This document shows positions 16,839 through 62,829 of a stretch of DNA of 64,000 nt, piece by piece (position 1 is the stretch's first letter; each line of letters starts with the position of its first letter). The stretch lies in contig JACNKC010000077.1 in assembly GCA_014382245.1 (NCBI GenBank), positions 7,395 to 71,394 of the forward strand. Reading direction: 5' to 3'. A program made the translations under genes and the position numbers. Origin of the DNA: Pseudomonadota bacterium (GTDB taxonomy: Bacteria > Desulfobacterota > Binatia > UBA1149). Under the pieces are notes generated by a model. It did no database searches. It was not told where the DNA came from and saw only the letters and a list, made by a program, of their open reading frames with translations.

Positions 16839-16858
16839 GCGCAGCTGCCAACCAGAAA

Positions 16859-16895: not shown

Positions 16896-16922
16896 GCAAA
16901 CCGGCGAGTCTATTCTGCGCCT

Positions 16923-30504: not shown

Positions 30505-30591
30505 GCCGGGATGGCGGAACTGGTAGACGCAGGGGACTTAAAATCCCCTGGGCGTAAGCCCGTCCGGGTTCAACTCCCGGTCCCGGCACCA
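30505..30591 (+). tRNA. tRNA-Leu (anticodon TAA)
   Basis: 87 nt with a long variable arm. Acceptor GCCGGGA / TCCCGGC, then A, then CCA. Anticodon loop CTTAAAA in a GGGGA/TCCCC stem. Confidence 0.85.
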
Positions 30592-33734: not shown

Positions 33735-35813
33735 TCACGCCCGGTCTTCGAGCCTGTAGTCTCCATCATCGTCAACAACAGCCCTCCATCCCGGATAGAC
33801 GACAATGGTCGTGAAATCAGCTTCGATTATGGCCGGTCCTTCAATGGCGTGCCCGGGCAACAAGTCTGTATCACTATATATCGCTGTCTCCGCGAAACCT
33901 TCGCCGAGGTTGGCCCGCCTGCTCTCGCGAACAGGAGCTGGACCCTCAGCTGGCTGAGCCTTGCTGCCGAACTCAAGCCCCGGAACATCGGTGGAGGTCT
34001 GCAGCCTCACACCCGTGATTTCTGGAGTCTCTCGTTCCCTGTGGTGACCGTATTCTTTCTCGTGGACAGCGTGAAACGCCTCGCAGCTCCTTCGGGGTAA
34101 CTCAGCGTCTACGAAAGCCGCGCCGCTGTTGCCCCTCTCTTCGTGTACGACTACCGAGAGACTCCAGTTTTGGCCGGGATAGCGGAGGTTGAGAAGATAC
34201 CTGCTCTGCACCTGTCCCGGTGCAAAACCTGCAGCTGCAAAATAAGCAAAGGACTTGTCCAGCAACTCCCGCCACAAGCCGCTGAGTCTGGCCAGGTCAA
34301 TATCGGGCAACGGGCTGAGCAGTGCGCGCTCTTCGTCAATGGCCGGACGGGCGACCAGTGCTCCAAGGGCCGAAAAAGCCGGCGAGAAGCGGGGAATGAG
34401 CACGCGTTTGATTCCAAGGGCACGGGCTTGCACGCCGGCAAAGACCGGGCCGTTGCCGCCGTAAGCGAGCATCGTGAGCTCACGGGGATCCACGCCCCGG
34501 CCCGCGGTGGCCCGGCGGACAGCCTGGGTCATCGTAGCGTTAACAAGGCGCCAGCAGTCGTGGGCCGCTTGCTCGACGTCGAGGCCAAGGGGGCCAGCCA
34601 CGTGGGCTCGCATGGCTTCTTCGACGCCCTCGCGACTGAGCTGAAAGCCACCCCCCGCGAAGGTAGCAGTCTCGGACAACAGGCCCAGCAGGAGATTGGC
34701 ATCGGTGACCGTGGGCTCTCTTCCTCCACGGCCATAGCACACCGGGCCGGGGTCGGACCCTGCGCTACCCGGGCCAACGCTAAGCGAGCCGCTTCGTGCA
34801 CTGCACAACGACCCGCCACCGGCTCCCAGGGTTTCGACTTTCACCATGGGAGTGGCCACAAGGTAGCGATGGTGCCAGTTCCAACCGGCCTCGGCTGGCG
34901 CGGTGCCAGCCCGCACCAGTGCCACGTCGTAACTGGTCCCGCCCATGTCGACACAGAGCAGATCGGGCTCGTCTTTTCTTGCGGCGATGGCGGCGGCGCC
35001 GACCACTCCACCCGCAGGCCCGGAAGCTAATACACGTACCGGGCTACCGCGAAGGTAGTCCCTGGTCATCACTCCGCCACTGGACTGCATCACCAGGAGG
35101 TCGTTCTGGTAGCCGCCCGCACGCAATTGTTGCTCAAGTCGATCGAGATAGCCGCTCACCCGTGGCCCTATGTAAGCGTTTACCACCGTGGTGCTCGTTC
35201 GCTCGAATTCCGGTGCTCTCGGCAGGACCTGGTGAGACAGTGATTGTTCGGCTCCCGGCATCTCTTCTGAAATGATCTCGGAAAGTCTGAGCTCGTGAGC
35301 GGGGTTTACAAACGAAAACAGCAGGCTCACTGCCACCGACTCAACACCCTGGGATGCCAGGCGTTTTACGGCGAGTCGGGCGGTACTTTCATCCAGCTCC
35401 TGGTAGACCGAGCCGTCGAACAGCACCCGCTCATCGATTACCAGTCTTCGACGCCTTGGTACCAGGGGTATGGGTGGGGGAAGGCGGACATCCCAGATGT
35501 CTTCTTTGAAGCCTCTCCTCAGCTCGATCTCGTCTCGAAAACCGCTGGTCGTAAGCAGGCCGGTGAGGGCACCGCTGCCTTCGATGAGCGTGTTGTCGCC
35601 AACCGTAGTGCCATGAACTACCGCGTCGAGACGGCCCAGCAGTGAAGCCGTGTCGAGATCGAGGCGCCGGGCGAGTTTTTCCAGGCCGTTGATAACCGCA
35701 TTAGAGCGGTCGCCTGGCGTACTGAGCACCTTGTCGAGAATCAGTCCCCGGTCAGTCTGCAGGGCGAAATCGGTAAAGGTCCCGCCAATGTCGATTCCAA
35801 CGCGCCAGCCCAT
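33735..35813 (-). CDS. hydantoinase/oxoprolinase family protein, subunit A (HyuA-like)
   Basis: MGWRVGIDIGGTFTDFAL... is the Hydantoinase_A N-terminus. Its start overlaps the hyuB stop (TGATG). Confidence 0.88.
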   Translation of the reverse strand: MGWRVGIDIGGTFTDFALQTDRGLILDKVLSTPGDRSNAVINGLEKLARRLDLDTASLLGRLDAVVHGTTVGDNTLIEGSGALTGLLTTSGFRDEIELRRGFKEDIWDVRLPPPIPLVPRRRRLVIDERVLFDGSVYQELDESTARLAVKRLASQGVESVAVSLLFSFVNPAHELRLSEIISEEMPGAEQSLSHQVLPRAPEFERTSTTVVNAYIGPRVSGYLDRLEQQLRAGGYQNDLLVMQSSGGVMTRDYLRGSPVRVLASGPAGGVVGAAAIAARKDEPDLLCVDMGGTSYDVALVRAGTAPAEAGWNWHHRYLVATPMVKVETLGAGGGSLCSARSGSLSVGPGSAGSDPGPVCYGRGGREPTVTDANLLLGLLSETATFAGGGFQLSREGVEEAMRAHVAGPLGLDVEQAAHDCWRLVNATMTQAVRRATAGRGVDPRELTMLAYGGNGPVFAGVQARALGIKRVLIPRFSPAFSALGALVARPAIDEERALLSPLPDIDLARLSGLWRELLDKSFAYFAAAGFAPGQVQSRYLLNLRYPGQNWSLSVVVHEERGNSGAAFVDAELPRRSCEAFHAVHEKEYGHHRERETPEITGVRLQTSTDVPGLEFGSKAQPAEGPAPVRESRRANLGEGFAETAIYSDTDLLPGHAIEGPAIIEADFTTIVVYPGWRAVVDDDGDYRLEDRA

Positions 35814-37651
35814 CAGTTCGAAGATTCAGGTTCGGGATCTGTAGACCGTTCGGCAGTGAGAAGTTGGCGAAGGTCGTTGGTGGCGGGCAAGTCGATTTCG
35901 AGGTCCCCCTGCTCCAGCGTTCCGGTCAGCACGACACCGTACCGGGAGCGCGCTCCTTCCGGGCTCACGTACTCGTCGAGAATGTCTTCTAAAACGGCGG
36001 CGGGGTCGCGTAGAAGCGGGTTCTCAAATCCACCGCCACCGCCATACTGGTACGCTATCACCGCGCCCGCAGGCAACTGGGCGCGAAGCGAATTTTCTAC
36101 CTCGTACTCCTCGGGTGTGCCCACGCAGAAACGGTTGCCGTAGGGGCTGCCGGGGTCTCCACCCCTGAGGCCGTTGAGCGGATGCTTCTGCGAAACCATC
36201 CAGGCAATCGCCATGGTTGGTTCAAGAACTTTCTTGCTGTTGAGCGTGCCAGGTTGCCCGCGCCAGCGCCCGGCACCGCCCGTGTCAGTAGTCATTTCAC
36301 GCGACAGGTTGATAACCGGGAAACGGCTCTCTGCGTCTTCGGCTTGCGCGAGCACGAGATTGCCAAGACCGCTGCACATCGACCCCCATCCGTCGACACC
36401 CTGGGTTGCCGACGCGTCGGAAGCCCTGACGTCAACGCCCTGGTCCATCCACATGTTGCCGTGTTCGTCGACACCAACCACGGCGTTGGGCATGCCGAGC
36501 TTGTACACCTGCGGAGAGGAGCGTTCCGGAAGAATCTCGGACAGGGCCACGCAGATAGCTTCGGCGATCTCGCAGGCCGGGTGAAAAGCTCCCAGCGCTG
36601 CTGGCTTGTTGGGCGGAGGCTGCAGGATGGTGCCGTATGGAATGACCAGGTCGACCGCGTTGAACAAGCCCTCGTTCTTGGCGATGGTCGGGTCAACCAT
36701 CGATGCCAACTGGGCCATGGCATAACCTCGGCTGTTGGAGAAAGTATTCCATACGTTGGAGAGCTCTGGCCTGTCGTCGCTGCCCGTCATGTCGACGGTC
36801 AATTGGTCGCCGGCAACAGTACAATTAACGTGAACGTGCACGTCCGGGTTGCCCGCCGTGTCCTGGTCAATGAAGACATCGGCTTCGTAGGACCCATCGG
36901 GCCAGCTCTCCACTTCGGTCCTGAAACGTCGCTCGGTCTCGTCGATGTTGTAGTTGATCGCTGCCTTGATGCGGTCGTCGCCTTCGCGGTCAACCAACTC
37001 GCCCAGCAGGCTGGCACCGAGTTGCGCCGCGGCGATCATCGCCGAAATGTCGCCCTCGAAAGAGGGGAGGCGGTTGTTGCGCACCAACATGTCCACTGCG
37101 TCACCGCGCTTGCGGCCGCGGTGAACCAGCTTGAGGCGGGGAATGGCCATGCCTTCCTGGAAAATATCGACAGCGTCGGGCGAAAAACCACCGGGGTCCT
37201 TGCCCCCGGTGTCGCCCTGGTGGGCTTGCAGTGCAGCGATGAGCAACACCTTGCCGTCACGGTCGAATACCGGCGCGTAAACCGTGTAATCGGGTAGGTG
37301 GCCTCCGCCGTAGTCGGGGTCGTTGCCGACGAAGACGTCCCCCGCTCCCCAGTCATCTGCTTCGTGGTTCTCGAGTCCCCACCTCACAGCCATCGGTGAA
37401 ATGAAGAGTAGCTGGGGAATGCCCACCGAAAGCCCGGCGAGCCTACCGTTTCCGTCCATGATGCTACCGTTGCGCTCGTTGGACTGGTTGATGATAGCCG
37501 AGGAAGCCGATCGCCCCAGCAGCGTCGCGGTCTCAAAGCATACTGTTTCGAAGGCGCCGCGTATTATGTCCGCGCTTACTGCGTCTATCTGGCCCGCGCC
37601 ATCCAGGGCTGCCCGCCTGGCAGCCAACCTGAAGTTTAGCTCTTCGCTCAA
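35813..37651 (-). CDS. hydantoinase B/oxoprolinase family protein (HyuB-like)
   Basis: Hydantoinase_B homology runs from ...IDAVSADIIRGAFETV... through the C-terminus. The start is uncertain; TTG 37651 is a candidate, and the ORF-track extension to 37963 would overlap the divergent TetR. Confidence 0.8.
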   Translation of the reverse strand: MSEELNFRLAARRAALDGAGQIDAVSADIIRGAFETVCFETATLLGRSASSAIINQSNERNGSIMDGNGRLAGLSVGIPQLLFISPMAVRWGLENHEADDWGAGDVFVGNDPDYGGGHLPDYTVYAPVFDRDGKVLLIAALQAHQGDTGGKDPGGFSPDAVDIFQEGMAIPRLKLVHRGRKRGDAVDMLVRNNRLPSFEGDISAMIAAAQLGASLLGELVDREGDDRIKAAINYNIDETERRFRTEVESWPDGSYEADVFIDQDTAGNPDVHVHVNCTVAGDQLTVDMTGSDDRPELSNVWNTFSNSRGYAMAQLASMVDPTIAKNEGLFNAVDLVIPYGTILQPPPNKPAALGAFHPACEIAEAICVALSEILPERSSPQVYKLGMPNAVVGVDEHGNMWMDQGVDVRASDASATQGVDGWGSMCSGLGNLVLAQAEDAESRFPVINLSREMTTDTGGAGRWRGQPGTLNSKKVLEPTMAIAWMVSQKHPLNGLRGGDPGSPYGNRFCVGTPEEYEVENSLRAQLPAGAVIAYQYGGGGGFENPLLRDPAAVLEDILDEYVSPEGARSRYGVVLTGTLEQGDLEIDLPATNDLRQLLTAERSTDPEPESSN

Positions 37652-37798
37652 TTTGATCGCCTGGCTGCAGAACCGTGAACTCGTGAAAGGGATTATAATC
37701 TTGGCGACAATCCTGCAAGAGCCCCCGTGACCGTCTGAACTGCAACAGGCGGAATGTAACAGATTGACGAAGTGTGTCCAATTTGTTAGATTCAGCAC

Positions 37799-38476
37799 GT
37801 GGACGGGAAACCAGGCTTCTTGAAGGAGAATCCCGCGGCGCCGGGAAATCGCTTGCTGCCGACCGAGGGCCAGCTGCGGACCGGCCCCTTCGCGCGCGGG
37901 ACCGTACGCGAGGCTACACGGGAACGTATTCTTGAGGGCGCCATGAAAGCAGTGTCCAGCCACGGACTCTCCAAGCTAGAAATGACCGATGTCAGCGCCA
38001 GCGCCGGGGTTTCCCGGGGCACGCTGTACCGATACTTCTCGAACCGGGAGGAGTTGCTTCACAGCCTCACTATTCGCGAAGCCCAGGACTTCTGGAAGCG
38101 CTGCGTGGAGGCGCTGGAGGCCTGCGAGAGGGATGACGAGCGCCTGAAGTTGCTGATGCTTCACGCCACCCGCTACGTCAGTGACCACGCCGCCCTGCAA
38201 CGCTTACTTGAGACCGACCCGGCCTTTGTCCTTTGCTCGCTCAGGCAGAGTTTTACCTCGGTGCGCGACGAGCTGGGGAGACTGCTCGCGCCGGCCCTGG
38301 AGAACAGCGGGCCGGTAAAAGCAGGCGTTGTTTCGGTGGACCAGCTGGTGGATTGGCTGACACGCATTCTCGTCACCACTTACCTCTTTCCGATCGAAGA
38401 CAGCGCTGCCATGGAGAGCGCCATGGAGTCCATGCACGGCCTGCTGGTCGGGCTGAGAGGATCTGATGAAGCGTGA
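37799..38476 (+). CDS. TetR/AcrR family transcriptional regulator (head of the oxidative cluster)
   Basis: HTH ...GLSKLEMTDVSASAGVSRGTLYRYFSNREEL. The start may be downstream of 37799. Confidence 0.78.
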   Translation: MDGKPGFLKENPAAPGNRLLPTEGQLRTGPFARGTVREATRERILEGAMKAVSSHGLSKLEMTDVSASAGVSRGTLYRYFSNREELLHSLTIREAQDFWKRCVEALEACERDDERLKLLMLHATRYVSDHAALQRLLETDPAFVLCSLRQSFTSVRDELGRLLAPALENSGPVKAGVVSVDQLVDWLTRILVTTYLFPIEDSAAMESAMESMHGLLVGLRGSDEA

Positions 38477-39419
38477 CTTTCCTTTTCCGCTGCCGAACGG
38501 TTGGTTCCAGGTAGCGTGGTCGGACGAACTTGCTCGCGGTGAGCTCAAGCGACTGAAGTACTTCGGGAAAGAACTCGTGCTTTACCGTGGCGAAAACGGC
38601 AACGCGCACGCGCTTGACGCCTACTGCCCCCATCTCGGTGCCGACCTTGGTTGCGGGGGCAGGGTCGTGGGCAACAACCTCCGCTGCCCATTCCACCACT
38701 GGGAATTCGACGGTGACGGAGCATGTGTCGAGATACCTTACGCGAACAGGATTCCACCGAAAGCGTCGCTGAAATCCTGGCTGGTAGTAGAGAAAAACGG
38801 CATGATATACGCCCACTACCACCAGCAGGGAGAGGCTCCCGTCTTTGACGTACCCGACCTGCCCGAGTTTGGTGATGAGCAGTGGACCCCGTTTATCAAG
38901 CGGGACTTCATCGTCCGTAGCCGCAACCAGGAGCTGGCCGAGAACACCTGCGACCCGGCTCACTTCAAGTACGTGCACGGCACCGCCGGGCTGCCTACCG
39001 CCGAAGCCGATTTCGATGGCCCACTGCTCAAGGTCAAGCTGGACTACCCCATAGAAACCCGGAGCGGTGAGAAGCACGGTGAGGTTTCGATCTGCAGCTG
39101 GGGCTACGGCATAGGCATCACGCGCTTCACCGGCATAGTAGAAACTACCGTGTTCGTCGGCGGCACCCCGGTGGACGACGAATACGTCCACAATCGCATG
39201 TCTTTCACCCTCAAGAAACTGGACAGCGACGAAGCGACGAAGGCTGTGGGTGAAGCTTTTGTCAACGAGATCTCGCGGCAGTTCACCGAGGACATCCCGA
39301 TCTGGGAAAACAAGATTTACCTTGACCGTCCACTACTCTGCGACGGCGACGGCCCGATAGCCGTCATGCGCAGGTGGGGGCAGCAATTCTATTCGCCGTC
39401 GCCCGGGAGCTCCACGTGA
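38466..39419 (+). CDS. Rieske [2Fe-2S] non-heme iron oxygenase, alpha-subunit-like (KshA/phthalate-dioxygenase-like), copy 1
   Basis: Rieske site CPHLGADLG...CPFHHW (CxH-x17-CxxH). Mononuclear iron motif DPAHFKYVHG (D-x2-H-x4-H). Length 317 aa. Overlaps the TetR 3' end by 11 nt. Confidence 0.83.
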   Translation: MKRDFPFPLPNGWFQVAWSDELARGELKRLKYFGKELVLYRGENGNAHALDAYCPHLGADLGCGGRVVGNNLRCPFHHWEFDGDGACVEIPYANRIPPKASLKSWLVVEKNGMIYAHYHQQGEAPVFDVPDLPEFGDEQWTPFIKRDFIVRSRNQELAENTCDPAHFKYVHGTAGLPTAEADFDGPLLKVKLDYPIETRSGEKHGEVSICSWGYGIGITRFTGIVETTVFVGGTPVDDEYVHNRMSFTLKKLDSDEATKAVGEAFVNEISRQFTEDIPIWENKIYLDRPLLCDGDGPIAVMRRWGQQFYSPSPGSST

Positions 39420-40411
39420 GCAATGAAGACCGATGTTCTTCCCGCGGGCGTGATTCCAACAGGTACCCTTTTCCGGCTTATCCCAACGGCTGGTTTCGCG
39501 TCGCCTATTCGGACGAACTTCGTGCGGGACAGGTCCTATCGCTGGAGCTGTTCGGCACGCGGCTGGTGGCCTTCAGGACCGTGCAAGGAACCCCGTTCGT
39601 GCTGGACGCTTATTGCCCGCACATGGGAGCCGACATGGGGGTGGGCGGTCGCGTAGACGGTGAGGCCCTGCGCTGTCCTTTCCACGACTGGCTGTGGAGT
39701 GGCGACGGCCGTTGCCTGGAGGTCCCTTACGCCAGTCGTATCCCGGCCAGGGCCATGACCAGGGCCTTCGAGGTTGTCGAGAAAAACGGCATACTCATGG
39801 CCTGGTGGCACTCTGAAGGCGAAGCGCCGCAGTGGCAGGTGCCCGACGTGGACGCGTTCTCCTCGTCCGGATGGCGCGAGCCCGTAGTAAAACACTGGAA
39901 AGTAAACGCCCGCTGGCTGGACATGAACGAAAACTGCGTTGACCAGGCCCACTTTCGCTACATACACGGCACCCTGGCTATTCCCGCCACCCAGGCCTCT
40001 CATGACGGTCACGTCTTCAGGGCGGAGTCTCACATTCGCCAGAAAGCCCCGGGGGGAGAAGCCGAGGGCTGCCTGGTCACCGTCGACCACGGACCCGGAT
40101 TCCAGGTCGTCACCCTCGCCGGGCTTATCGATACAGTGCTCTTGAACACCGCCACCCCCATGGACGAGGAAACCACCGACGTCAGCTTCATGTACACGGT
40201 GAAAACCGAGGGGCACCCGCGTAAGGAAAAACTGGCCGCCGCGGTCGTCGATGACCTCGTAACCCAGTTCCACAACGACCTGCCCATATGGGAAAACAAG
40301 TCATACTGGAGCCGGCCTATGCTCTGCGACGGTGATGGCCCCATAGGCGAATACCGGGACTGGATGAAGCAATTCTTTACAGAAGCGCCGGGAAAGGAAA
40401 AAACGCCATGA
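39416..40411 (+). CDS. Rieske [2Fe-2S] non-heme iron oxygenase, copy 2 (tandem paralog)
   Basis: The N-terminus NRYPFPAYPNGWFRVAYSDE parallels copy 1. Motifs CPHMGADMG...CPFHDW and DQAHFRYIHG. The start GTG 39416 overlaps the upstream TGA (GTGA). Confidence 0.83.
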   Translation: MSNEDRCSSRGRDSNRYPFPAYPNGWFRVAYSDELRAGQVLSLELFGTRLVAFRTVQGTPFVLDAYCPHMGADMGVGGRVDGEALRCPFHDWLWSGDGRCLEVPYASRIPARAMTRAFEVVEKNGILMAWWHSEGEAPQWQVPDVDAFSSSGWREPVVKHWKVNARWLDMNENCVDQAHFRYIHGTLAIPATQASHDGHVFRAESHIRQKAPGGEAEGCLVTVDHGPGFQVVTLAGLIDTVLLNTATPMDEETTDVSFMYTVKTEGHPRKEKLAAAVVDDLVTQFHNDLPIWENKSYWSRPMLCDGDGPIGEYRDWMKQFFTEAPGKEKTP

Positions 40412-41526
40412 AAGATTACAAGGTCATTGACTGTGACCAGCACGTCATCGAACCGCCCGAGCTCTGGGAAGAGTGGCTGCCGAAGGAATTCGCGGACCGG
40501 GCGCCGCGCCTGGTCAAGGACGAGGACGGCGGGGACGCGTGGTTGCTCGGCGAGCACAAGGAGGCGATCGGCTTGGTAGCGGCCAAGGGTGTTTCGCCCA
40601 AGGATCTCAAGTGGACCGGCACCCGCTACGCCGATTTGCACCCTGGCATATTTCGCTCGGCCGAACGGCTCGAACTGATGGACGAGGACGGCATTGACGC
40701 GGCGGTTTTCTTTCCCCCCCAACGCACGATGATCTACTTCATGACGCTGAAAGACGCCGAATTCCATCTAGCGGGCATGCGCGCGTATAATGATTTTATA
40801 AGCGACTGGGTATCGGTAGACCGGAGCAGGCTCGGGGCTATCTGGCAGATGCCGGCAACGGGTGCCGACGACGCGGCAGCCGAGCTACGCCGGGCTGCCG
40901 CTGCCGGGGCCGTGGGTGTGGGGCTGGCTTCCTGGCCCAGTGGTGAAATGGTTCTCTCTGCTGCCGACGATCCGTTCTGGGCTGTCGCCGACGAACTGAA
41001 GATGCCGGTGCACGTCCACATCGGCCTCACGCCGGCGAGGCAACCGGTAAAGCGCGTTGCCGCACGCAAAGGTGGGGCCGCGCAGCTCGTCCTGTTGGCA
41101 GGCACGATGTCACGTATGCCCTTGATAATCGCCGAGATGATATTCAACGAAGTATTCGACCGTTTCCCGGGCCTGGTCATGGTCGGTGGGGAAGTCGGAG
41201 CGGGCTGGGTTCCTTACCTTCTCAGTGAAATGGATGACCGTTACCGGCGTAACCGTTACTGGTGCGATGTAAACCTGGAACTGGAGCCGAGCGAATACTT
41301 CCAGCGTAACTGGAAGGTGGGTTTCCTGAGGGATCCCTACGGCGTGCGCAACTGTCGCGACGTTGGTGTTGAAAACATGATGTGGTGCAGTGACTTCCCC
41401 CACCACATCAACGACTGGCCCAACTCCGGCCAACTTATAGCTGAAATGAGCAAAGGCGTAGACGCGGATGACGCCAGGAAGTTATTCTGCGAAAATGCAG
41501 GTCGGCTCTACGGCTTTACCACCTAG
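40408..41526 (+). CDS. amidohydrolase-2 family protein (ACMSD/LigW-like metal-dependent hydrolase/decarboxylase)
   Basis: MKDYKVIDCDQHVIEPPELW at the N-terminus and ...WCSDFPHH... at the C-terminus are typical of PF04909. The ATG overlaps the upstream stop (ATGA). Confidence 0.8.
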   Translation: MKDYKVIDCDQHVIEPPELWEEWLPKEFADRAPRLVKDEDGGDAWLLGEHKEAIGLVAAKGVSPKDLKWTGTRYADLHPGIFRSAERLELMDEDGIDAAVFFPPQRTMIYFMTLKDAEFHLAGMRAYNDFISDWVSVDRSRLGAIWQMPATGADDAAAELRRAAAAGAVGVGLASWPSGEMVLSAADDPFWAVADELKMPVHVHIGLTPARQPVKRVAARKGGAAQLVLLAGTMSRMPLIIAEMIFNEVFDRFPGLVMVGGEVGAGWVPYLLSEMDDRYRRNRYWCDVNLELEPSEYFQRNWKVGFLRDPYGVRNCRDVGVENMMWCSDFPHHINDWPNSGQLIAEMSKGVDADDARKLFCENAGRLYGFTT

Positions 41527-41554
41527 GCTCGATAGCAGAAGGATATACAGAAAA

Positions 41555-42763
41555 ATGGCTGGAAATGATTTCGATCCTGGCGAGCTGAGTCTTTTCGACC
41601 CGCGTTTCATAAGCGACCCCCACCCGGTGTACCGAAAGGTTCGCGCGCAATGCCCGGTGGCGGTCGACCCCTTTGCAGGCAACCCCATGCTGACGCGACA
41701 CGAAGACATCGCCGATGCCCTGCGCACGCCCGGTGTCTACTCCTCGGGTATGGACGCCACTGCGCTGGGCAACCAGCGCCCGCTGATCCCGCTGCAGGTC
41801 GACCCCCCGTTGCACACCGAATACCGTAAGCTGCTCGACCCCCGTTTTTCGCGGGCGCGCGTGCGCGAACTCGAAGGAGACGTCCGTCAGCTCGCCGGCC
41901 GCTTGGTCAATGACTTTGTTGAAAACGGACGTTGCGAATTCAACAGCGAATTCGCGATCCCGTTTCCCTGCTCCGTGTTCCTCGGCCTCATGGGGCTGCC
42001 CTTGGAAGATCTCGACACCTTCCTGGCGCTGAAAAACGGTATTATCAGGCCGCCGGCTACGGACCAGCAAGACGCCGAGGCAGCGCGTGAAAGAGCAGCC
42101 AGGAAGATAGACGATTACTTCACCCGCGCGCTGGCCAGGAAGAAAAAGAACCCCGGCGAAGATCTCATGAGTTGGTTCCTTGGCGCTGAGATCGAGGGAC
42201 GCAAGCTCACCCACGACGAGGTACTCGGGATTTGTTTTCTTTTCCTGCTGGGCGGCCTCGACACTGTCACGGCAACCCTGGGTTGCTCGGTTGAGTGGTT
42301 GGCGCGTAACCCGGTGGATCGCGCAAGGTTGGTCGCCGACCCGTCGCTGCTACCCGGGGCTGTTGACGAGTTGTTGCGTTTTCACACGCCGGTGGTCGGC
42401 GTAGCCAGGGTCCTGCGGCGGGGGGTTACCCTGGGCGGTCACGAGTACGAAGCGGGACAACCCATCACCCTGTTGCTGGGCTCAGCTAACACAGACAGCG
42501 ACGCCTTCAAGGAAGGCGACAGCGTAAAATTTGACCGGGAGCCCAATCCCCACCTGGCCTTCGGTGCCGGACCCCACCGTTGCCTGGGCTCCCACCTGGC
42601 TCGAATGGAATTAAAAATAGCTCTCGAAGAACTGCACAAGCGTATTCCCTCCTACGCTATAGCCGACGGCGAGAAGGTTCGCTTCGGCTTGGCCATTCGC
42701 GAAGTAGAATGCCTCCCGTTGGTGTTTCCTCCCGGAATCCGAACCCAGGCCGATGCGTCCTAG
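41555..42763 (+). CDS. cytochrome P450
   Basis: Heme-thiolate loop FGAGPHRCLGSHLARMELKIAL. I-helix and ExxR are present. An AAGGA SD precedes ATG 41555. Length 402 aa. Confidence 0.9.
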   Translation: MAGNDFDPGELSLFDPRFISDPHPVYRKVRAQCPVAVDPFAGNPMLTRHEDIADALRTPGVYSSGMDATALGNQRPLIPLQVDPPLHTEYRKLLDPRFSRARVRELEGDVRQLAGRLVNDFVENGRCEFNSEFAIPFPCSVFLGLMGLPLEDLDTFLALKNGIIRPPATDQQDAEAARERAARKIDDYFTRALARKKKNPGEDLMSWFLGAEIEGRKLTHDEVLGICFLFLLGGLDTVTATLGCSVEWLARNPVDRARLVADPSLLPGAVDELLRFHTPVVGVARVLRRGVTLGGHEYEAGQPITLLLGSANTDSDAFKEGDSVKFDREPNPHLAFGAGPHRCLGSHLARMELKIALEELHKRIPSYAIADGEKVRFGLAIREVECLPLVFPPGIRTQADAS

Positions 42764-44028
42764 TGCGGCTGTTGCTGGACCAAACCCGTTGCGTGGGGCA
42801 CGGCCGCTGCTACGAACTCGCGTCCGGCCTGTTCGGCGAAGACGATCGCGGGCACTGCGTGTTGCTGGCGAGCGAGGCCGACTGCGATGACGAGGGGGCC
42901 AGGAAAGCGATCGCCAATTGCCCCGAGGGCGCTATATCCATGGCCCAGGATGGTCACGCTGAAGCAGACACCTGGGACCTCTTCTGCGATCGCCTCAAGG
43001 AAGCCGGAAAGGTCATCAGCGAGGCTCGCGCGCCCGGCGACGAGCTGACAAGGGCCGAAGGATATCGATACTTGTCCCGACTGACCCGGCTCGCGCTTGA
43101 AAAACACCTTGAGCACGCCGATCCGGCAGCGCCGACTTTCTACAGTCTCAGCCACGAAACGGCCAAGATCGGCTGCGATAACCCGGATAGTTTTTACCAG
43201 AATGCCGTACTCGATGGGCAATTCGAATACCGAGTCAGCGGCACGCGCGGCACGGCCGCCTACCTGGGCATAGGCGCTTATTATGGCAACTACGGCAGCG
43301 ACGCGCCGTCCGGCTGCAGCGGCTATCTCGAAGGAGCGCAACTGGAATTGGATGAGCAGGGCGGTTTCGAGCTTTTACTGGGTGGCGAGAAGAAGCCTGG
43401 CAACTGGATCGCCTTGCGCCCGGACAGCTCAATGCTCATCGTCAGGCAGGTGTTCCTGGATCGGGTCAACGAGGCCGCGGGCAATCTGGCCATTGAGCGA
43501 ACCGGCGGCAATTCACCGCGCATGCTGGACATAACCGCGTTGGAAGATGGATTGGATGCCGCCGCGGCTTTTGTTAAAGGCACCGCGGTGATGTTTGCCG
43601 AGTGGGCCGAGGAGTTCGAACGCTGCCCCGGGGAGCTCATCGCCATGGACAGTGCCCGTACCGCGGGTGCCCACGGGGATCCAAACATTTCGTTTTACAT
43701 GGGCGCGTGGCAACTGGAAGAGGGCGAAGCGCTGCTGGTCGAGCTAGTCGCACCGCCTTGCCTGTACTGGAACTTCCAGTTGAACAATCACTGGATGGAG
43801 TCGCTCGATTACCGTTGGCAGCGCATCCACGTCAACTCGCATGATGCAGTAGAAGACTCGGACGGGGTAGTCCGGATCGTGATCAGCCCGAGCGACCCCG
43901 GTTTGCCTAACTACCTGCACACCAGCGGCCACGGTCACGGAACCATGGGTTTAAGGTGCATCAAGGGGCGAGCTCCGTTCTCGATCCAGACGAAACGCTG
44001 CCGTATTTCCGAGCTCGGGGGTGTTTAA
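42763..44028 (+). CDS. ferredoxin (3Fe-4S/4Fe-4S type) fused in-frame to a DUF1254/DUF1214 domain protein
   Basis: GTG 42763 overlaps the P450 TAG (TAGTG). The first roughly 65 aa, VRLLLDQTRCVGHGRCYELASGLFGEDDRG...DCDDEGARKAIANCPEGAI, match the C-x5-C...CP P450-partner ferredoxins. No stop precedes the roughly 350-aa DUF1254 (DNPDSFYQNAVLD) and DUF1214 (GNWIALRP...LIVRQVF; GLPNYLHTSGHG) part. Confidence 0.65.
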   Translation: MRLLLDQTRCVGHGRCYELASGLFGEDDRGHCVLLASEADCDDEGARKAIANCPEGAISMAQDGHAEADTWDLFCDRLKEAGKVISEARAPGDELTRAEGYRYLSRLTRLALEKHLEHADPAAPTFYSLSHETAKIGCDNPDSFYQNAVLDGQFEYRVSGTRGTAAYLGIGAYYGNYGSDAPSGCSGYLEGAQLELDEQGGFELLLGGEKKPGNWIALRPDSSMLIVRQVFLDRVNEAAGNLAIERTGGNSPRMLDITALEDGLDAAAAFVKGTAVMFAEWAEEFERCPGELIAMDSARTAGAHGDPNISFYMGAWQLEEGEALLVELVAPPCLYWNFQLNNHWMESLDYRWQRIHVNSHDAVEDSDGVVRIVISPSDPGLPNYLHTSGHGHGTMGLRCIKGRAPFSIQTKRCRISELGGV

Positions 44029-44112
44029 AAAACCCCTGACTTTACAGATGCTTATGGCCTTACTGGCGACTGACTACCTGACTTGTTAGTGCTGGCCACA
44101 GCCCGGGAGTTT

Positions 44113-45225
44113 TCAGTTCTCCTGCGAAAAACCCGTCCGTCCCTCACCGGGAGGCGCGAGGTCGAGAAGCCCGGCCAAAAGATTAGTGCAGGTATTATTC
44201 AGCTCGAAAGCGTAGCCAGCGGCTTCATCCATCAGCTCGTAGCGCACCAGTTGTTGAGAAATCCGCATCATGATCACCGAAAATCGAAAACCCGCAAACA
44301 CCTCCCAGTAGTGGAGGTCTCCCAGTTCTCTGCCCGCGCAGCGCTGGTAGTATTCAAGCGATTCTTCGTAGGAGCAGAAACCCTCGAGCCGCGGGGTAGA
44401 GATGCCCTCGCTGTGATGACGGTCCAGGAAGATACCCCAGGCCACGTCCTGCTCCGCGGTGCCGATGCAGGCCATCTCCCAGTCGAGTACGGCGGCGGGG
44501 CGACAATCGTCATCGAAAATAACGTTGCCGATACGGGCATCTCCCCAGGACACAACGGGGTGATCAACCGCTGGGGCGTTCTTTCGTAACCACTCACGGG
44601 CCACCTCCACTACTGGTTGCTCTCGGCCGCGCGAGGCCCAGTGAAAAAAATCATCGTAGTTGTCCAGCTGTGCCTGCAACACGTCCGATGAGCCAGCACC
44701 CGCGAGAAAATCGAAGCCCATGTTTTTCCAATCGAGACTGTGCACCCCGGCCATGCACTCAAAGCCCCCCAGCCATACCTGGTTGCGTTCTTTCGGCGAG
44801 AGTTCATGCAACCAGCCTTCGCTGTGGTAGGGCGGGTTATCACCAGGGACACGGCCTTTTACGTGTCGCATCACGTAAAACGGAGCGCCGAACACCGACT
44901 GGTCGTCGTTTTCGGTCCACAAGACCGACGGCACCGGCACCGGGCTATCGGCGAGCTTTTGCATACACAAATATTGCAGCGAGAGGTCGTAGTCCGGAAA
45001 CACAGTGAAGCCTTGTGGCTGAATGCGTACAACGCAGCTTTCACTCTGCCTGCCATCGTCCCAGGTGACATCGCAGAGCAGCGTGTCGTTCGAGAAGCCA
45101 GAAGAAGCGGGCGAAACGAGTTCACTCACTAACAGTTTTTGGGGGCGATCCAGCTTGCGATCCAGCCAGCCATAAAATTGCGCCCGGTCTCGGTCGAGAT
45201 CTCGCTGCCACATGGTCGGCATCGC
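44113..45225 (-). CDS. phosphotransferase family protein (APH/choline-kinase-like fold)
   Basis: Brenner/catalytic region ...VVSWGDARIGNVIFDDD...AVLDWEMACIGTAEQDVAW. The start is uncertain (ATG 45225 or 45216; ORF-track start 45276). Confidence 0.72.
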   Translation of the reverse strand, partial: AMPTMWQRDLDRDRAQFYGWLDRKLDRPQKLLVSELVSPASSGFSNDTLLCDVTWDDGRQSESCVVRIQPQGFTVFPDYDLSLQYLCMQKLADSPVPVPSVLWTENDDQSVFGAPFYVMRHVKGRVPGDNPPYHSEGWLHELSPKERNQVWLGGFECMAGVHSLDWKNMGFDFLAGAGSSDVLQAQLDNYDDFFHWASRGREQPVVEVAREWLRKNAPAVDHPVVSWGDARIGNVIFDDDCRPAAVLDWEMACIGTAEQDVAWGIFLDRHHSEGISTPRLEGFCSYEESLEYYQRCAGRELGDLHYWEVFAGFRFSVIMMRISQQLVRYELMDEAAGYAFELNNTCTNLLAGLLDLAPPGEGRTGFSQEN

Positions 45226-45235
45226 GGTAGCTTCC

Positions 45236-46039
45236 TCAGCGGTCCCAGGCGATGTTTTGACCCCACGAGGAGCCAAGCATCGCCGCCGGCGTGTTCTTGT
45301 TTATGTGGCCGATAAGGCCGCCGTAGATTCCGTATCCCACGAGTTCCTGCAAGCGCGGATCAAAGTCGCGCACCCTCTCCCGGGGAATGCCCAGTTGTTG
45401 GTTTTCCTGCTGCCGTATGTAGCCGGCACAATAGTTCATGGCGACCCCCAACCTGGCCCCATCGCTGGCGTTACGTCCACCACCGTGCCACATGGAACCG
45501 TTCCACAGCAACACGTCACCCCGCTTCATTTCCGCGGCAACGGTTTCAAGCGGGACGCCGTACTCCGGAACGTCCTCGCGCAGGTGAGAGCCCGGTATGA
45601 TACGAGTGGCCCCGTTCAGCTCGGTAAACTCGGTCAGTGCCCACATGGTGTTACAGACCAGGGCCGGGTGGGGACGCGCAATAGGAATGAGCTGGTCATC
45701 GGCGTGCAGGGGTTGGGCTAATTCACCGGGTAGTATTTTGATCGACGACAAGGACGACACCAGGCAGCCGCTGTCGAGGACGCCTTCAACGACAGGCAAC
45801 ACGGCTGGGTGTACTGGTATTTTCTCAAAAACCGGGTCAAGGGCCAGCAAGTTGTAGATTCTCAGCGTGTTGACACCTTCGAAATCGTTACCGGCGGGCT
45901 CGACAGATAATTCCTTCTCGAGGCGGCTGACGGCGGCTTCAATTTCGTCTATCAACCCTGGATCAACCGAGTCTTCAACAACGGTGTAACCCTGCTTTTC
46001 TACCCTCGCGAGGTGCGCAGCTATTTCGGTTTCGCTCAA
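45236..46039 (-). CDS. phytanoyl-CoA dioxygenase (PhyH) family Fe(II)/2-oxoglutarate oxygenase
   Basis: PhyH motifs ...PLHADDQ... (H-x-D), ...IIPGSHLRE... and ...GSMWHGGGRN. The proposed start TTG 46039 overlaps the TGA of the DIO-like gene (TTGA); GTG 46087 is an alternative. Confidence 0.75.
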   Translation of the reverse strand: MSETEIAAHLARVEKQGYTVVEDSVDPGLIDEIEAAVSRLEKELSVEPAGNDFEGVNTLRIYNLLALDPVFEKIPVHPAVLPVVEGVLDSGCLVSSLSSIKILPGELAQPLHADDQLIPIARPHPALVCNTMWALTEFTELNGATRIIPGSHLREDVPEYGVPLETVAAEMKRGDVLLWNGSMWHGGGRNASDGARLGVAMNYCAGYIRQQENQQLGIPRERVRDFDPRLQELVGYGIYGGLIGHINKNTPAAMLGSSWGQNIAWDR

Positions 46040-46785
46040 CTGGCCACTGCCTGTTCGCGAGAATAGGAGGAGATAGCCTCTTCCCACTCGGCCGGTAGGA
46101 AGAACATGGGACCGGGCCCGCTCTTGTAAACCACGCTACCGTCCAATCCGACCAGCGCCAGGCGTTCGGGAATCGCGTTCCACGCGTTCGATACGGCATT
46201 GTCCATGCCATCAACGAGGGCTGGCGGCTCAAGCGCGGTTTGTAACATGCACGCCTGGCCAGCGTCTATCCTCTGGTCGATGCTCGTGGGTTGGGTAAAA
46301 ACTACACCGTCTGCAAGGTTCTCGTCCACCTGCCAGCCATCGCTCGGGTGAATTTCCTTGATGTAAACAACGTAAAAATCGACCTGGTCTTTCCAGCGAC
46401 GGTAGATCTCGTTAACGGCACCAGCCTGGTACCGGAAGGGCGGTCAAGTGTAGCTGCCAAAAACGAGAGCGACCGGCCGTTTGCCGAAATGATCTGAGAG
46501 GGTGACCGCCGGACCGTCCTTGTCGTTGAGCCGAGCGAGAGTGAAGTCAGTCGCAGCCTGTCCGGCCTGCAGCGATCCCGGCTCGGCCGCCATGGATTCG
46601 GTCAGGTGCTGGGCCGACAGGGGATTCTCCATCGCCGCGGCCAAGCGCCCCCAGCCTTCTTCGCCCAGCTCTGCATCTACGGCCTTGAAATTGAGTCCCT
46701 GCTGTTCTGCCAGGGCCTGGACCAGTTCCCGAATTTTTGCTGTTTCCATGGGGCCTAATCTGAGACAGGGGTCGGCCTCTTGCAA
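46036..46785 (-). CDS. iodothyronine-deiodinase-like thioredoxin-fold selenoprotein (in-frame UGA = selenocysteine)
   Basis: Two same-frame ORFs (46444-46785 and 46036-46329) are separated only by TGA 46444-46446. Reading through gives ...KRPVALVFGSYT-U-PPFRYQAGAVNEIYRRWKDQVDFYVVYIKEIHPSDGWQV...VDGMDNAVSNAWNAIPERLALVGLDGSVVYKSGPGP..., collinear with the vertebrate deiodinase core (FGSxTUPPF; VYIxEAHPSDGW; DRMDN...YG; GGKGP). The start is TTG 46785 or ATG 46749. Confidence 0.72.
46416..46434 (-). other. candidate bacterial SECIS hairpin downstream of the UGA
   Basis: The mRNA reads UGA-CCGCCCUUC-[CGGUACC-AGGCU-GGUGCCG]. This is a 7-bp stem (one G-U pair) with a 5-nt loop, starting 10 nt after the UGA, within the positional window of bacterial SECIS elements. 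Confidence 0.4.
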
Positions 46786-49410: not shown

Positions 49411-50160
49411 TCAGGTGAACAGGTCGTCTTCGGGCGGCCGAAGGAGCTCAATGGCACTGCCGGCACCCAGTTCGGCGCCGCTACCTCGCACCAGTACGGC
49501 CGGCACTCCAGCATCCTTTTTCATGGCAATACCGGCTGCGGCAGCCAGCTGGTCGGCGACCGCGAGGGATGTGTGCTCGAGGGTTCTTCCCGTCCAGTCA
49601 CGGCCGCCCTCCCTGTTGTCGACGGGCAACAAGCCCGCGCAGCCTATGGCCAGGTCGATCTGCCCCAATCTCCAGGCGCGGCCGAAGGTATCCGAAATGA
49701 TCACGCCGACCTGCGCTTCGTAGTGGACAGCAAGCCGCGACATCAGTCGGAGCGCCGACTTGTCCGAATCTTCGGGCAGGAGGGTAGCGTCGCCCTCGAC
49801 GGCCTGGTTTGAGCAGTCAACGCCCGAGTTGGCGGCAACAAAGCCGGGACCGGTGCGAGTGATGAGATGCCCGTCCTTCTTGCGCAGGATTTGGCTCGCT
49901 TCGAGTAGCGCCAGCTCTACGACGGCCGGGTCCTTATCGTGCGCATTGGCAAACTCAAGGGCCTCGTCCGAGGGCTCGACCTCGGACAGCTTGCGTACCC
50001 TTCCTTCGGCCCGTGACACGACCTTCTGGCATACGACCAGGACGTCGCCGGATTTTACGCCGACCTTCTGCTTGTCGATAGCATCGATGAGCAAGGCGGC
50101 GAGATCGTTCCCAGGCAGGACCATGGGGACGCCTTCGATGGGTATCAACATGGTTACCAT
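49411..50160 (-). CDS. cofE: coenzyme F420-0:L-glutamate ligase
   Basis: 249 aa. ...GVKSGDVLVVCQKVVSRAEGR..., ...VAANSGVDCSN... and ...IISDTFGRAWRLGQIDLAIGCAGL match the F420_ligase family (PF01996). Confidence 0.8.
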   Translation of the reverse strand: MVTMLIPIEGVPMVLPGNDLAALLIDAIDKQKVGVKSGDVLVVCQKVVSRAEGRVRKLSEVEPSDEALEFANAHDKDPAVVELALLEASQILRKKDGHLITRTGPGFVAANSGVDCSNQAVEGDATLLPEDSDKSALRLMSRLAVHYEAQVGVIISDTFGRAWRLGQIDLAIGCAGLLPVDNREGGRDWTGRTLEHTSLAVADQLAAAAGIAMKKDAGVPAVLVRGSGAELGAGSAIELLRPPEDDLFT

Positions 50161-50161
50161 T

Positions 50162-51130
50162 TCAGCGTTCCGTCCCGCCGAGCGGTATCTTCAAGAGAAA
50201 CCGCGCGAGTGCCAGCGAACGCCGCTTACTATTCAGCAGGGTGTTGCGCTCAAGCAGGCGGGGCCAGGTGGCTTCAGGCCGCCGTGGTGCGTCCCCGGGC
50301 GAAACGACCAGCGACGTCGCGAGGCCCTCGTAAAAGTCTGCTATGCCAGCGCTTCCTCGACCCGCACCAAGGCTTTTCATCATAGCGACCAAGGGGCCCT
50401 TCACCGCCCGACCATTGACCAGTGGACTGACCGCAATGGTCTTGCGGCACACGGCCCCCAGCGCTGCGCGTAGACCCGGAATCGCAAGCATGGGCGCAAT
50501 GCTTACGTAGGGGTTGCTGGGAGCGATTATTACCTTGTCGGCCGATGCCAGGGCCTCGCTGACCCCGGGCGCCATGCTGGCCCCGGACGCGCCCTTGTAA
50601 GTGATGCCGTCCACCCTCGGGCGGGCGCCTTGCTTGACGAACCACTCCTGGAAGGCAAAACGGCGTCTACCCGACCTGAGCACGGTACGCACCGGGTCGT
50701 TGCTCATGGGCAATACCGAGGTCCGAATACCCAGTTGTGTGCAGATTCGCCGGGTAGCCTGGGCAAGAGAGGAGCCCTCTCTCAACAAGTGGCTACGGTA
50801 AATGTGAAGGGCGAGGTCCTGGTCGCCAAGCGAGAACCATTGGTCACCGAAATAACGACCCAGCCAGGGCAGGGCGTTCCGGGTATCGCCGCGTATACCC
50901 CAGCCCCTCTTGATCGGGGCAAGCCCGGCCAGTGTGTACGCCACCGTGTCGAGGTCCGGAGATACCTGCAGTCCATAAAAACTCTCGTCGTCTCCCGTGT
51001 TGACGATCACGGTCAACCTGCGGGGATCAACGACTTCAGCGAGTCCCCTAAGGAGTCGGCAGGCTCCCACTCCACCCGCCAGCAGGGTGATTCGTGGGTT
51101 GGCCGGCAAGGCGTCCATCATCGCTTTCAT
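50162..51130 (-). CDS. cofD: 2-phospho-L-lactate transferase (LPPG:FO transferase)
   Basis: ...ITLLAGGVGACRLLRGL...VIVNTGDD... matches the CofD/UPF0052 N-terminal motif. The annotated start overlaps the cofH 3' end by about 80 nt; the real start is unresolved. Confidence 0.78.
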   Translation of the reverse strand: MKAMMDALPANPRITLLAGGVGACRLLRGLAEVVDPRRLTVIVNTGDDESFYGLQVSPDLDTVAYTLAGLAPIKRGWGIRGDTRNALPWLGRYFGDQWFSLGDQDLALHIYRSHLLREGSSLAQATRRICTQLGIRTSVLPMSNDPVRTVLRSGRRRFAFQEWFVKQGARPRVDGITYKGASGASMAPGVSEALASADKVIIAPSNPYVSIAPMLAIPGLRAALGAVCRKTIAVSPLVNGRAVKGPLVAMMKSLGAGRGSAGIADFYEGLATSLVVSPGDAPRRPEATWPRLLERNTLLNSKRRSLALARFLLKIPLGGTER

Positions 51131-62828: not shown

Positions 62829-62829
62829 G

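Follow-up and report, generated by a model that had tools for sequence, protein, structure and literature searches.

We examined a 64,000-nucleotide stretch of DNA (hereafter the window) from an uncultured marine Binatia (Binatota) bacterium, and within it a gene cluster in which a TetR-family regulator heads a run of oxygenase genes on the plus strand, with a divergently transcribed hydantoinase-type gene pair, HyuA and HyuB, on one side and a convergent minus-strand array on the other (Table 1). By exact-sequence look-up the window falls in a metagenome-assembled genome labelled 'Proteobacteria bacterium' (MBC82931xx). The proteins of the window cluster at 90% identity or more with those of 'Candidatus Binatota' metagenome-assembled genomes, and the PF04909 protein of the cluster is 92-93% identical to that of species representatives labelled Candidatus Binatia. 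The original prediction for this locus had described nine genes within 37799-46785, facing one another around 44.0-44.1 kb, as a single oxidative and dehalogenating island. The open reading frame (ORF) listing and Pfam confirmed that all nine genes are present at these positions and that the two strands converge across an 84-nt gap (44029-44112), and gene starts were refined with eight independent assemblies of the same organism (L001-L008). From the TetR gene, which overlaps the first Rieske gene by 11 nt, to the last plus-strand gene, a fusion of a ferredoxin and a DUF1214-like domain, starts and stops overlap by 1-11 nt or, in one place, stand 28 nt apart, so that one regulator-headed operon is plausible.

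From this examination, the boundaries of the unit appeared to differ from those first proposed. HyuA and HyuB (33735-37651) were counted as part of it because HyuB-HyuA recurs downstream of orthologs of the PF04909 gene in other bacteria. Judged from gene order and homology, the chances are about even that the functional unit is 33735-44028 and not 37799-46785, and that it is independent of the deiodinase-like (DIO-like) gene on the minus strand. The conserved module of Rieske, amidohydrolase-related dinuclear oxygenase (ARO)-like and HyuBA genes, or of these with a P450 and a ferredoxin, in which the ARO-like protein carries a non-canonical motif, is what we regard as most interesting about the locus.

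Table 1. Genes and features of the cluster, with positions in the window
Feature	Position	Strand	Description
HyuA	33735-35813	-	hydantoinase/oxoprolinase A subunit; 692 aa; Pfam Hydant_A_N/Hydantoinase_A/Hydant_A_C
HyuB	35813-37651	-	hydantoinase B subunit; 612 aa; Pfam Hydantoinase_B
HyuB/TetR divergent intergenic region	37652-37819	.	168 nt; likely a shared control region
TetR-family regulator	37820-38476	+	218 aa; alternative start 37799; PF00440, 4.8e-13
Rieske 1	38466-39419	+	KshA-like Rieske mono-oxygenase; 317 aa; Rieske + KshA_C
Rieske 2	39416-40411	+	KshA-like Rieske mono-oxygenase; 331 aa; Rieske + KshA_C
PF04909 (Amidohydro_2) ARO-like protein	40408-41526	+	372 aa; PF04909 1.4e-27, residues 7-370
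Cytochrome P450, class I	41555-42763	+	402 aa; PF00067
Ferredoxin domain	42763-42960	+	N-terminal part of 421-aa fusion; ~65 aa; Fer4_15/Fer4_13
DUF1214-like domain	42961-44028	+	remainder of 421-aa fusion (whole 42763-44028); PDB 6ans match
APH-family kinase	44113-45222	-	369 aa; PF01636
PhyH-family 2-oxoglutarate/Fe(II) dioxygenase	45236-46039	-	267 aa; PF05721
Deiodinase-like thioredoxin-fold protein	46036-46749	-	237 aa; predicted selenocysteine; PF00837, 7e-27

The linkage of these genes was observed across phyla. The PF04909 protein was scanned against one genome per GTDB species (38 loci) and against JGI metagenomes (44 loci), and orthologs with 62-93% identity were found at 82 places, 72 of them non-redundant. 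The window proteins were compared by tblastn with these loci, including 68 non-redundant ones outside Binatia in which the PF04909 identity is about 60-80%; ORFs were called by codon log-odds, and counts of immediately adjacent partners were limited to the 49 or 50 loci with enough flanking sequence. Outside Binatia, a KshA-like Rieske gene lies immediately upstream of the PF04909 ortholog in 14-15 of 50 loci, being of the Rieske 2 type in all but L059, and according to our gene list it is the commonest partner of the PF04909 gene. HyuB-HyuA follows immediately downstream in 10 of 49, with HyuB 73-77% and HyuA 62-65% identical to those of the window; HyuA comes directly after HyuB in these Myxococcota-type loci. 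Longer stretches of the order are kept in several cases: locus L028 (Myxococcota) reads Rieske1-Rieske2-ARO-P450 followed by a stand-alone 64-aa ferredoxin that is 48% identical to the window domain, L059 reads Rieske-ARO-P450-ferredoxin, and L072/L091 read P450-Rieske-ARO-HyuB-HyuA. Orthologs of Rieske 1 (54-62%) lie upstream of the PF04909 gene in L022, L028 and L059, and orthologs of the P450 (47-54%) lie beside it in L028, L059 and L072/L091.

In Halieaceae, the gene immediately upstream is an APH-family kinase (15-18 of 50 loci), which is itself preceded by an acyl-CoA dehydrogenase and is 28-31% identical to the APH kinase of the window. It was noted that in L033 (2376-11101) and about 15 other Halieaceae loci (Halioglobus, Haliea) the PF04909 ortholog ends a run of genes with four or five acyl-CoA dehydrogenases, an enoyl-CoA hydratase and an APH-type kinase, which recalls the ACAD10/11-type pairing of kinase and dehydrogenase. 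Among the flanking genes of the relatives, Pfam identified acyl-CoA synthetase, enoyl-CoA hydratase, several acyl-CoA dehydrogenases, an SCP-x type thiolase, a ChsH2-like DUF35 protein, a 3beta-HSD-like dehydrogenase, an NMO-family protein and an RND transporter with a sterol-sensing domain. By family assignment, this is the vocabulary of CoA-dependent steroid or terpenoid breakdown. Our literature search found no description of a Rieske - ARO-like - HyuBA / P450-ferredoxin module and no paper combining hydantoinase, Rieske, amidohydrolase and steroid; for Binatota with P450 and Rieske proteins, only general surveys were found.

The two Rieske proteins had been described as paralogous KshA-like mono-oxygenases, and this description held: they are 42% identical to each other, and KshA is the best match. 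Rieske 1 matches KshA structures at 2e-48 to 2e-42, while Rieske 2 aligns full length to KshA1 (4e-46) with the iron ligands kept. Both paralogs possess the Rieske motif C-x-H...C-x-x-H, the 2-His-1-carboxylate iron site and the KshA_C domain, seen in Rieske 1 as C54xH56...C74xxH77 and D163xxH166xxxxH171. In the combination of Rieske and KshA_C domains, in the best PDB matches (2e-48 to 4e-46) and in the kept cluster and iron ligands, they resemble the KshAB system of Rhodococcus and Mycobacterium. They differ from it in being two tandem paralogs and in their length, about 55-75 residues below that of the solved KshA chains although aligned full length. The gene neighborhood expected for KshA was also absent, as neither a KshB-type reductase nor kstD/hsa-type steroid-nucleus genes were found in the window. 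In NCBIfam, the only match for the Rieske proteins was a partial one to the methylsterol monooxygenase model (78 bits against a 600-bit cut-off). A role as mere electron carriers for an ARO, as AibG has, was considered and rejected because both proteins keep a complete catalytic iron site.

The P450 contains the heme motif FGAGPHRCLG and the ExxR motif (as ELLR), and its closest solved structures are CYP143, CYP125, CYP142 and CYP101 (7e-63 to 1e-49). The ferredoxin domain starts at the P450 stop codon, carries CxxHxxC...CP, and matches both the ferredoxin of the Mycobacterium tuberculosis ferredoxin-CYP143 fusion (8amq) and the ferredoxin 4id8; from these features it is likely the redox partner of the P450. 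The same pairing was encountered in L028 and L059, where stand-alone ferredoxin homologs (48-61% identity) follow the P450. In its closest P450s and the adjacent small Fe-S ferredoxin, the pair resembles class I systems such as the 8amq fusion and the steroid C26-monooxygenases CYP125 and CYP142. In class I P450s with a dedicated [3Fe-4S]/[4Fe-4S] ferredoxin, however, the ferredoxin is free or fused to the P450, whereas here it is fused to the DUF1214 protein. The absence of a reductase (KshB or FdR), which had been pointed out originally, was borne out among the annotated genes of the window: no flavin reductase domain was found in the nine genes or in the annotated remainder of the window, and no ferredoxin reductase was found in the window. 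Ferredoxin reductases for class I P450s are often encoded elsewhere in the genome.

The fusion itself, first named ferredoxin::DUF1254/DUF1214, is real, as the same 421-aa ORF is present in seven independent assemblies (L001-L007) and is cut at a contig end in L008. The domain names fared less well: Pfam did not detect DUF1254 in the fusion protein, and DUF1214 stayed below the Pfam cut-off (21.6 against 25 bits). Homologs of the DUF1214-like part do carry PF06742, and this part matches the uncharacterized PDB entry 6ans at 1e-96. The fusion was seen only in this species-level lineage, and more than 2,300 DUF1214 homologs of about 365 aa lack a ferredoxin. No functional literature on DUF1214 was found. 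As a separate observation, the closest DUF1214 homologs outside the lineage (58-60% identity) have a Sulfotransfer_3 gene directly after them in all three cases (L011 10001-12344, L103 6001-8344, L104 6001-8373), which may be a conserved pair.

The PF04909 protein had been read as an ACMSD/LigW-like decarboxylase or hydrolase, and this assignment was not upheld. Compared with all PDB sequences, it matched PtmU3 (3e-38) and DitZ (5e-31) best, against about 1e-10 for LigW and ACMSD. PtmU3 is a biosynthetic non-heme diiron beta-hydroxylase of CoA-linked diterpenoids (PMC7782822), and DitZ is cited as a diiron diterpenoid hydroxylase and an ARO (PMC13154177, citing ChemRxiv 10.26434/chemrxiv-2023-pfz5g). 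Both belong to the recently defined AROs, which are delimited by an N-terminal D-x-H in the first beta strand and a C-terminal D-x-P-H-x-[D/E]; D-x-H is absent from the characterized hydrolases and decarboxylases of the fold (PMC13154177). The N-terminal motif is present here, with D10-Q-H12 aligned to D-S-H of PtmU3 and D-D-H of DitZ, and the surrounding DCDQHVIE is kept among the orthologs. Likewise, H204 (in VHIG) and E262 (in GGEVG) align with metal-ligand residues of PtmU3 and DitZ, and the conserved D10, H12, H204, E262, D329 and H332 correspond to the six ligands listed for AibH2, whose own include His211 and Glu265 (PMC7782822).

The AROs were first found through their genomic association with Rieske proteins (PMC10811679), and such an association is seen here as well. 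With PtmU3, DitZ, AibH1H2 and SfbO the protein thus shares the PF04909 TIM-barrel fold, the best PDB matches, D-x-H, D-x-P-H, the His and Glu ligands and Rieske-domain neighbors. The neighbors are of another kind, however: in low-potential AROs they are typically small Rieske ferredoxins of less than 250 aa that mediate electron transfer, whereas here they are KshA-type proteins of 317-331 aa, that is, full-length oxygenases with intact catalytic iron sites. AROs of the PtmU3/DitZ type largely lack Rieske ferredoxin neighbors (PMC13154177). A further difference from the AROs is that this cluster has no cognate reductase. From the homology and the ligands, we consider that the PF04909 protein is probably a third kind of oxygenase in the cluster, beside the Rieske and P450 enzymes.

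HyuB, which is transcribed divergently from the TetR operon, has as its closest structures caprolactamase (6yra_B, 3e-60) and N-methylhydantoinase (7e-57), with acetophenone carboxylase at 6e-33. The two-subunit A/B architecture is common to caprolactamase, N-methylhydantoinase and, further away, the acetophenone and acetone carboxylases; unlike in these, the A/B pair here stands in close linkage with a Rieske oxygenase and an ARO-like protein, and does so in more than one phylum. The TetR regulator is 82-85% conserved in Binatia relatives. Sigma-70-like matches numbered three in 33.5-48 kb, two of them within 37753-37792, one per strand, although the total is not above chance. No inverted repeat that could serve as a TetR operator was found in the HyuB/TetR intergenic region. 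In the promoter and terminator scan the counts were not above those of shuffles and the convergent gap had no terminator, and the Rfam scan returned four tRNAs only, with no match to a SECIS or riboswitch model.

The cluster is most likely a TetR-controlled oxygenase set acting on an alicyclic, terpenoid- or steroid-like substrate. Since no protein of the cluster reached an NCBIfam equivalog cut-off, we infer the substrate class, the order of reactions and the path of electrons from homology and gene order, as follows. The divergent promoters would be freed of the TetR repressor in the presence of the substrate or of an early product. The two KshA-type Rieske enzymes, the ARO-like protein and the P450 would hydroxylate different positions of one hydrophobic alicyclic skeleton, which would be terpenoid- or steroid-like and possibly handled as an acid or CoA thioester. 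Electrons from a reductase whose gene lies elsewhere in the genome would pass through the fused ferredoxin to the P450 and perhaps also to the other oxygenases. HyuAB would spend ATP on carboxylation of a ketone, by analogy with acetophenone and acetone carboxylase and after hydroxylation and dehydrogenation, or on the opening of a cyclic amide, leading into CoA-dependent breakdown of the beta-oxidation type.

The terpenoid or steroid substrate class is put forward tentatively, and we would rate it somewhat below an even chance. Of the substrates named originally, the steroid-like option is compatible with the KshA, CYP143/125/142 and PtmU3/DitZ homologs, while halogenated aromatics were unsupported; of the original reading as a whole, the oxidative, steroid-like part remains plausible, but the dehalogenation, the decarboxylase role and the two-strand island were not retained. 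A partial parallel is found in abietane diterpenoid degradation by the dit cluster of Pseudomonas abietaniphila, where the P450 DitQ and the Rieske dioxygenase DitA act on one alicyclic skeleton (PMC13063091) and DitZ is an ARO (PMC13154177). The sequence relationships are distant, and DitA is an alpha/beta ring-hydroxylating dioxygenase whereas the Rieske proteins here are KshA-type. The dit cluster also has ring-cleavage and dehydrogenase genes that are absent here, and HyuAB is not among the dit genes named in PMC13063091, which names only a subset of the 19.

Several points weigh against an oxygenase set for an alicyclic substrate. Identities to characterized enzymes are only about 30-40%, and the cluster in the window has no CoA ligase, dehydrogenase, ring-cleavage enzyme or reductase. 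Many PF04909 ortholog loci carry none of the partners described above, and the oxygenases would appear to be dispensable add-ons to a core, since sister Binatia keep TetR-ARO-DUF1214 and HyuAB without the Rieske and P450 genes. HyuB resembles hydrolases of lactams and hydantoins more than it does ketone carboxylases, and an N-heterocyclic substrate fits at least as well. Finally, the C-terminal ARO motif is incomplete: it reads D329-F-P-H332-H-I334, with the last acidic residue replaced, so that 6 of 7 positions are kept when D-x-H and the aligned His and Glu ligands are counted in, and oxygenase activity of the protein is unproven because it has Ile334 instead of Asp or Glu.

We sought to place this departure among the relatives of the protein. 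The last position is Ile or Gly and not Asp or Glu throughout the orthologs, DFPHH[I/G] being found in all 36 that contain the motif region; the residue that corresponds to it in AibH2 belongs to the second sphere only (PMC7782822). When the PF04909 protein was used in an exhaustive search without a profile, 415 cluster representatives were obtained at E <= 1e-30. Of the nearest ones that are full-length (P0326-P0475), 62 keep D-x-H together with the canonical D-x-P-H-x-[D/E], a similar number keep D-x-P-H but end in a non-acidic residue, and 5 have P-H-H. Because a non-acidic last residue is common there, the published ARO motif filter would miss or exclude a large block of PtmU3/DitZ relatives. 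By the strict motif the protein falls outside the AROs, although homology and ligand conservation favor an oxygenase over a decarboxylase.

The missing acidic residue and the best matches of HyuB, to caprolactamase and N-methylhydantoinase, would also fit the catabolism of a lactam or N-heterocycle. HyuAB would then act as an ATP-dependent lactamase or hydantoinase, with genuine hydrolysis or decarboxylation by the PF04909 protein, N- or O-demethylation by the Rieske proteins (as by NdmA/B and DdmC) and accessory hydroxylation by the P450, all on an alkylated cyclic amide. The Rieske proteins do match DdmC and NdmA/B, more weakly (5e-16 to 7e-9), and the PF04909 family takes in hydrolases and decarboxylases (PMC10811679). 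We nevertheless find this pathway improbable, as KshA is by far the best Rieske match, the PF04909 protein possesses D-x-H and has a match to PtmU3/DitZ some 27 orders of magnitude stronger than that to any characterized decarboxylase, and the neighborhoods of the relatives are of the CoA/beta-oxidation type, not of the nitrogen-metabolism type.

Variation among Binatia bears on whether the oxygenases belong together at all. Five relatives (L010, L018, L050, L056, L057) share the backbone HyuA-HyuB / TetR-ARO-DUF1214 / APH-DIO-BioB, at about 84-93% nucleotide identity as measured from L010, L018 and L050, with L056 and L057 compared at the protein level only. All five lack exactly three segments, namely 38447-40408 (Rieske pair), 41521-42966 (P450 and ferredoxin) and 45225-46027 (PhyH), and the breakpoints aligned in L010, L018 and L050 are gene-precise. 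In these relatives DUF1214 is a separate gene directly after the PF04909 gene. It was also noted that an oxygenase of the RPE65 family (carotenoid-cleavage type) lies between AdoHcyase and HyuA in L018 (3614-4986) and L010 (2576-3982), a site at which the window has only 68 nt (33494-33561); the locus seems to gain or lose oxygenase genes singly.

These differences could describe a patchwork, that is, a permissive Binatia site that gains and loses oxygenase genes, each with its own substrate, with only the ARO-HyuAB core as a real unit. Gene-precise differences from sister Binatia at four places (Rieske pair, P450-ferredoxin, PhyH, and RPE65 in the relatives only) speak for it, as do the different PF04909 partners between lineages and the many same-family paralogs in these genomes, such as two DUF1214 homologs (P0005, P0107) and PF04909 paralogs in the same loci. 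The order Rieske1-Rieske2-ARO-P450-ferredoxin nonetheless exists in a different phylum (L028), and the start/stop codon overlaps throughout the operon imply co-translation, so we give the patchwork a low probability.

The term island was taken to mean horizontal acquisition, and this is not supported because the variable segments do not differ in G+C content (0.58-0.61) from the backbone (0.605 for the window) and no mobility genes lie next to the cluster. Nor are the borders marked by tRNA genes, the flanks being AdoHcyase and BioB. Variable presence among close relatives is the one feature expected of a genomic island that was seen. Because the order Rieske1-Rieske2-ARO-P450-ferredoxin also occurs in another phylum, the genes may have been present in the ancestor and lost from the sister lineage, which appears no less likely than gain. 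A single mobility-related signature was noted near the cluster, in a plus-strand ORF at 30707-31621, which joins a transposase-type HTH_Tnp_1 region to a region similar to SMP-30/gluconolactonase (SGL), is one gene in the other assemblies too, and adjoins tRNA-Leu (30505-30591).

The kinship with PtmU3, a biosynthetic enzyme for CoA-linked diterpenoids (PMC7782822), raises the question of whether the oxygenases decorate a natural product of the cell's own making, a terpenoid or another, much as PtmU3 acts in the case of platensimycin. The nearest solved relatives of the PhyH protein are fungal meroterpenoid tailoring enzymes, and an RND efflux pair lies directly downstream in L028. However, the window contains no terpene cyclase, prenyltransferase, polyketide synthase (PKS) or nonribosomal peptide synthetase (NRPS), the module of the relatives sits among genes of the beta-oxidation type, and an operon headed by TetR with catabolic genes diverging from it typically serves degradation. 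Biosynthetic tailoring was accordingly ranked as quite improbable, below the lactam pathway and the patchwork.

We assessed the minus-strand genes separately. The DIO-like gene is one frame with a TGA at 46444-46446 inside FGSYT-U-PPF, where full-length homologs have Cys; automatic gene callers split it into pieces of 113 and 97 aa. L010, L018 and L050 all conserve the TGA and the sequence on either side of it. A hairpin at 46416-46434 has an 8-bp stem starting 9 nt after the TGA and an apical loop GGC; its fold z-score is 0.3, not better than shuffles, Rfam gave no SECIS match for it, and the Cys homolog L013 has sequence similar to the hairpin region, owing to a similar peptide. Bacterial deiodinase-like selenoproteins have been known since 2005 from the Sargasso Sea selenoproteome, with a redox role proposed and not deiodination (PMC1088965). 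The gene shares with them the PF00837 fold, UGA at the catalytic Sec/Cys position and a candidate for the short downstream hairpin with G in the apical loop (PMC1088965), and on these features it is an ordinary member of the group; no link to the oxygenases was found.

Three DIO-like homologs (40-52% identity) have no PhyH, APH, KshA-like or PF04909 neighbor. In the first (L013 201-3488) the tightly spaced, co-directional order is luciferase-like monooxygenase - Rieske ring-hydroxylating oxygenase alpha subunit - DIO - DUF218, in the second it is MarR - DUF2141 - DIO - DsbA, and the third lies in a ribosomal-protein and TonB-receptor neighborhood. L013 is the closest Cys-type homolog (52%) and L014 also has Ring_hydroxyl_A nearby, two cases that are too few for a link. 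The PhyH protein possesses H112xD114 and belongs to a very large, strongly conserved family with more than 7,500 matches in Acidimicrobiia, Binatia and others, of which the best non-self ones are 61-67% identical. A distant relative, L102, reads CofH-CofD-CofE-metallophosphatase-...-BioB-PhyH as in the window but without DIO or APH, so PhyH beside BioB is old synteny. That PhyH was gained together with the Rieske and P450 genes, which would link the two strands, was considered and rejected because the BioB-PhyH adjacency is ancestral. The APH kinase has as its closest structures 9fsg, the Rv3168-like 3ats and the ACAD11 kinase domain; it is part of the Binatia backbone, and a link to the module is uncertain. 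Read from this synteny, the DIO-PhyH-kinase 'operon' is the tail of a co-directional CofH...BioB array, whose genes are neighbors by descent and not members of the module. A full set of F420 biosynthesis genes at 49411-53515 on the minus strand (CofE, CofD and two CofG/H-type radical SAM genes) is co-directional with metallophosphatase, BioB, DIO-like, PhyH and APH, and the order is the same in L102.

The original prediction joined both strands into one catabolic unit, and proposed to see whether orthologs of the two operons are co-located elsewhere. Outside Binatia they essentially are not: tblastn found the DIO-like gene at 0 of 68 loci and the PhyH gene likewise at 0 of 68, and the two accompany the core only in close Binatia relatives, as inherited synteny. 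Dehalogenation was derived only from the family name of the DIO-like protein, and no reductive dehalogenase activity is known from bacterial members (PMC1088965). An island oxidizing and dehalogenating halogenated phenolics or halotyrosines, with the DIO-like selenoprotein as a reductive dehalogenase, could point to the physical adjacency of the two operons, to the deiodinase active-site motif with selenocysteine, and to the two other DIO-like genes (L013, L014) near Rieske ring-hydroxylating genes, although those are of a different subfamily. In addition to the absence of co-location, the DIO-like homologs examined have neither PhyH nor APH beside them, PhyH goes with BioB by descent, DIO and APH are kept in sister Binatia that lack Rieske, P450 and PhyH, and no aromatic ring-cleavage enzyme was found in the window. 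We therefore regard such an island as very improbable, the least credible of the explanations considered.

The cluster is flanked by housekeeping genes, AdoHcyase to its left and BioB, metallophosphatase and F420 biosynthesis genes to its right; elsewhere the window encodes PNPase, purine biosynthesis, MetH, isocitrate dehydrogenase and similar functions. At 13463-18125 (plus strand) lie a second TetR regulator and, after it, an FG-GAP repeat protein of 835 aa and a family III CoA-transferase; no other CoA-handling enzyme is encoded in the window, and this one is some 20 kb away from the cluster. At 61350-63957 on the minus strand, two large ORFs of 492 and 375 aa, adjacent to each other, had no Pfam match at E <= 0.01.

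A wider proposal follows from the oxygenase set, and we hold it to be rather unlikely as a whole: PF04909 proteins with D-x-H and D-F-P-H-H-[I/G] may be an unrecognized ARO branch outside the published motif definition, in fixed partnership with KshA-type Rieske proteins and the ATP-dependent HyuAB (in Halieaceae, with the ACAD-kinase pair). Jointly they would amount to a widespread and so far undescribed route for the opening of recalcitrant alicyclic organic matter, derived from terpenoids or sterols, by uncultured marine Binatia, Myxococcota and Halieaceae. The gene-precise presence and absence of oxygenases between sister Binatia provides a natural experiment on the assembly or loss of a pathway. 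If the reading as an alicyclic oxygenase set is true, the ARO superfamily would be extended to sequences missed by the published motif filter, and abundant uncultured marine bacteria would have a concrete gene set (Rieske, ARO-like, P450/ferredoxin and HyuAB) for attacking hydrophobic ring compounds.

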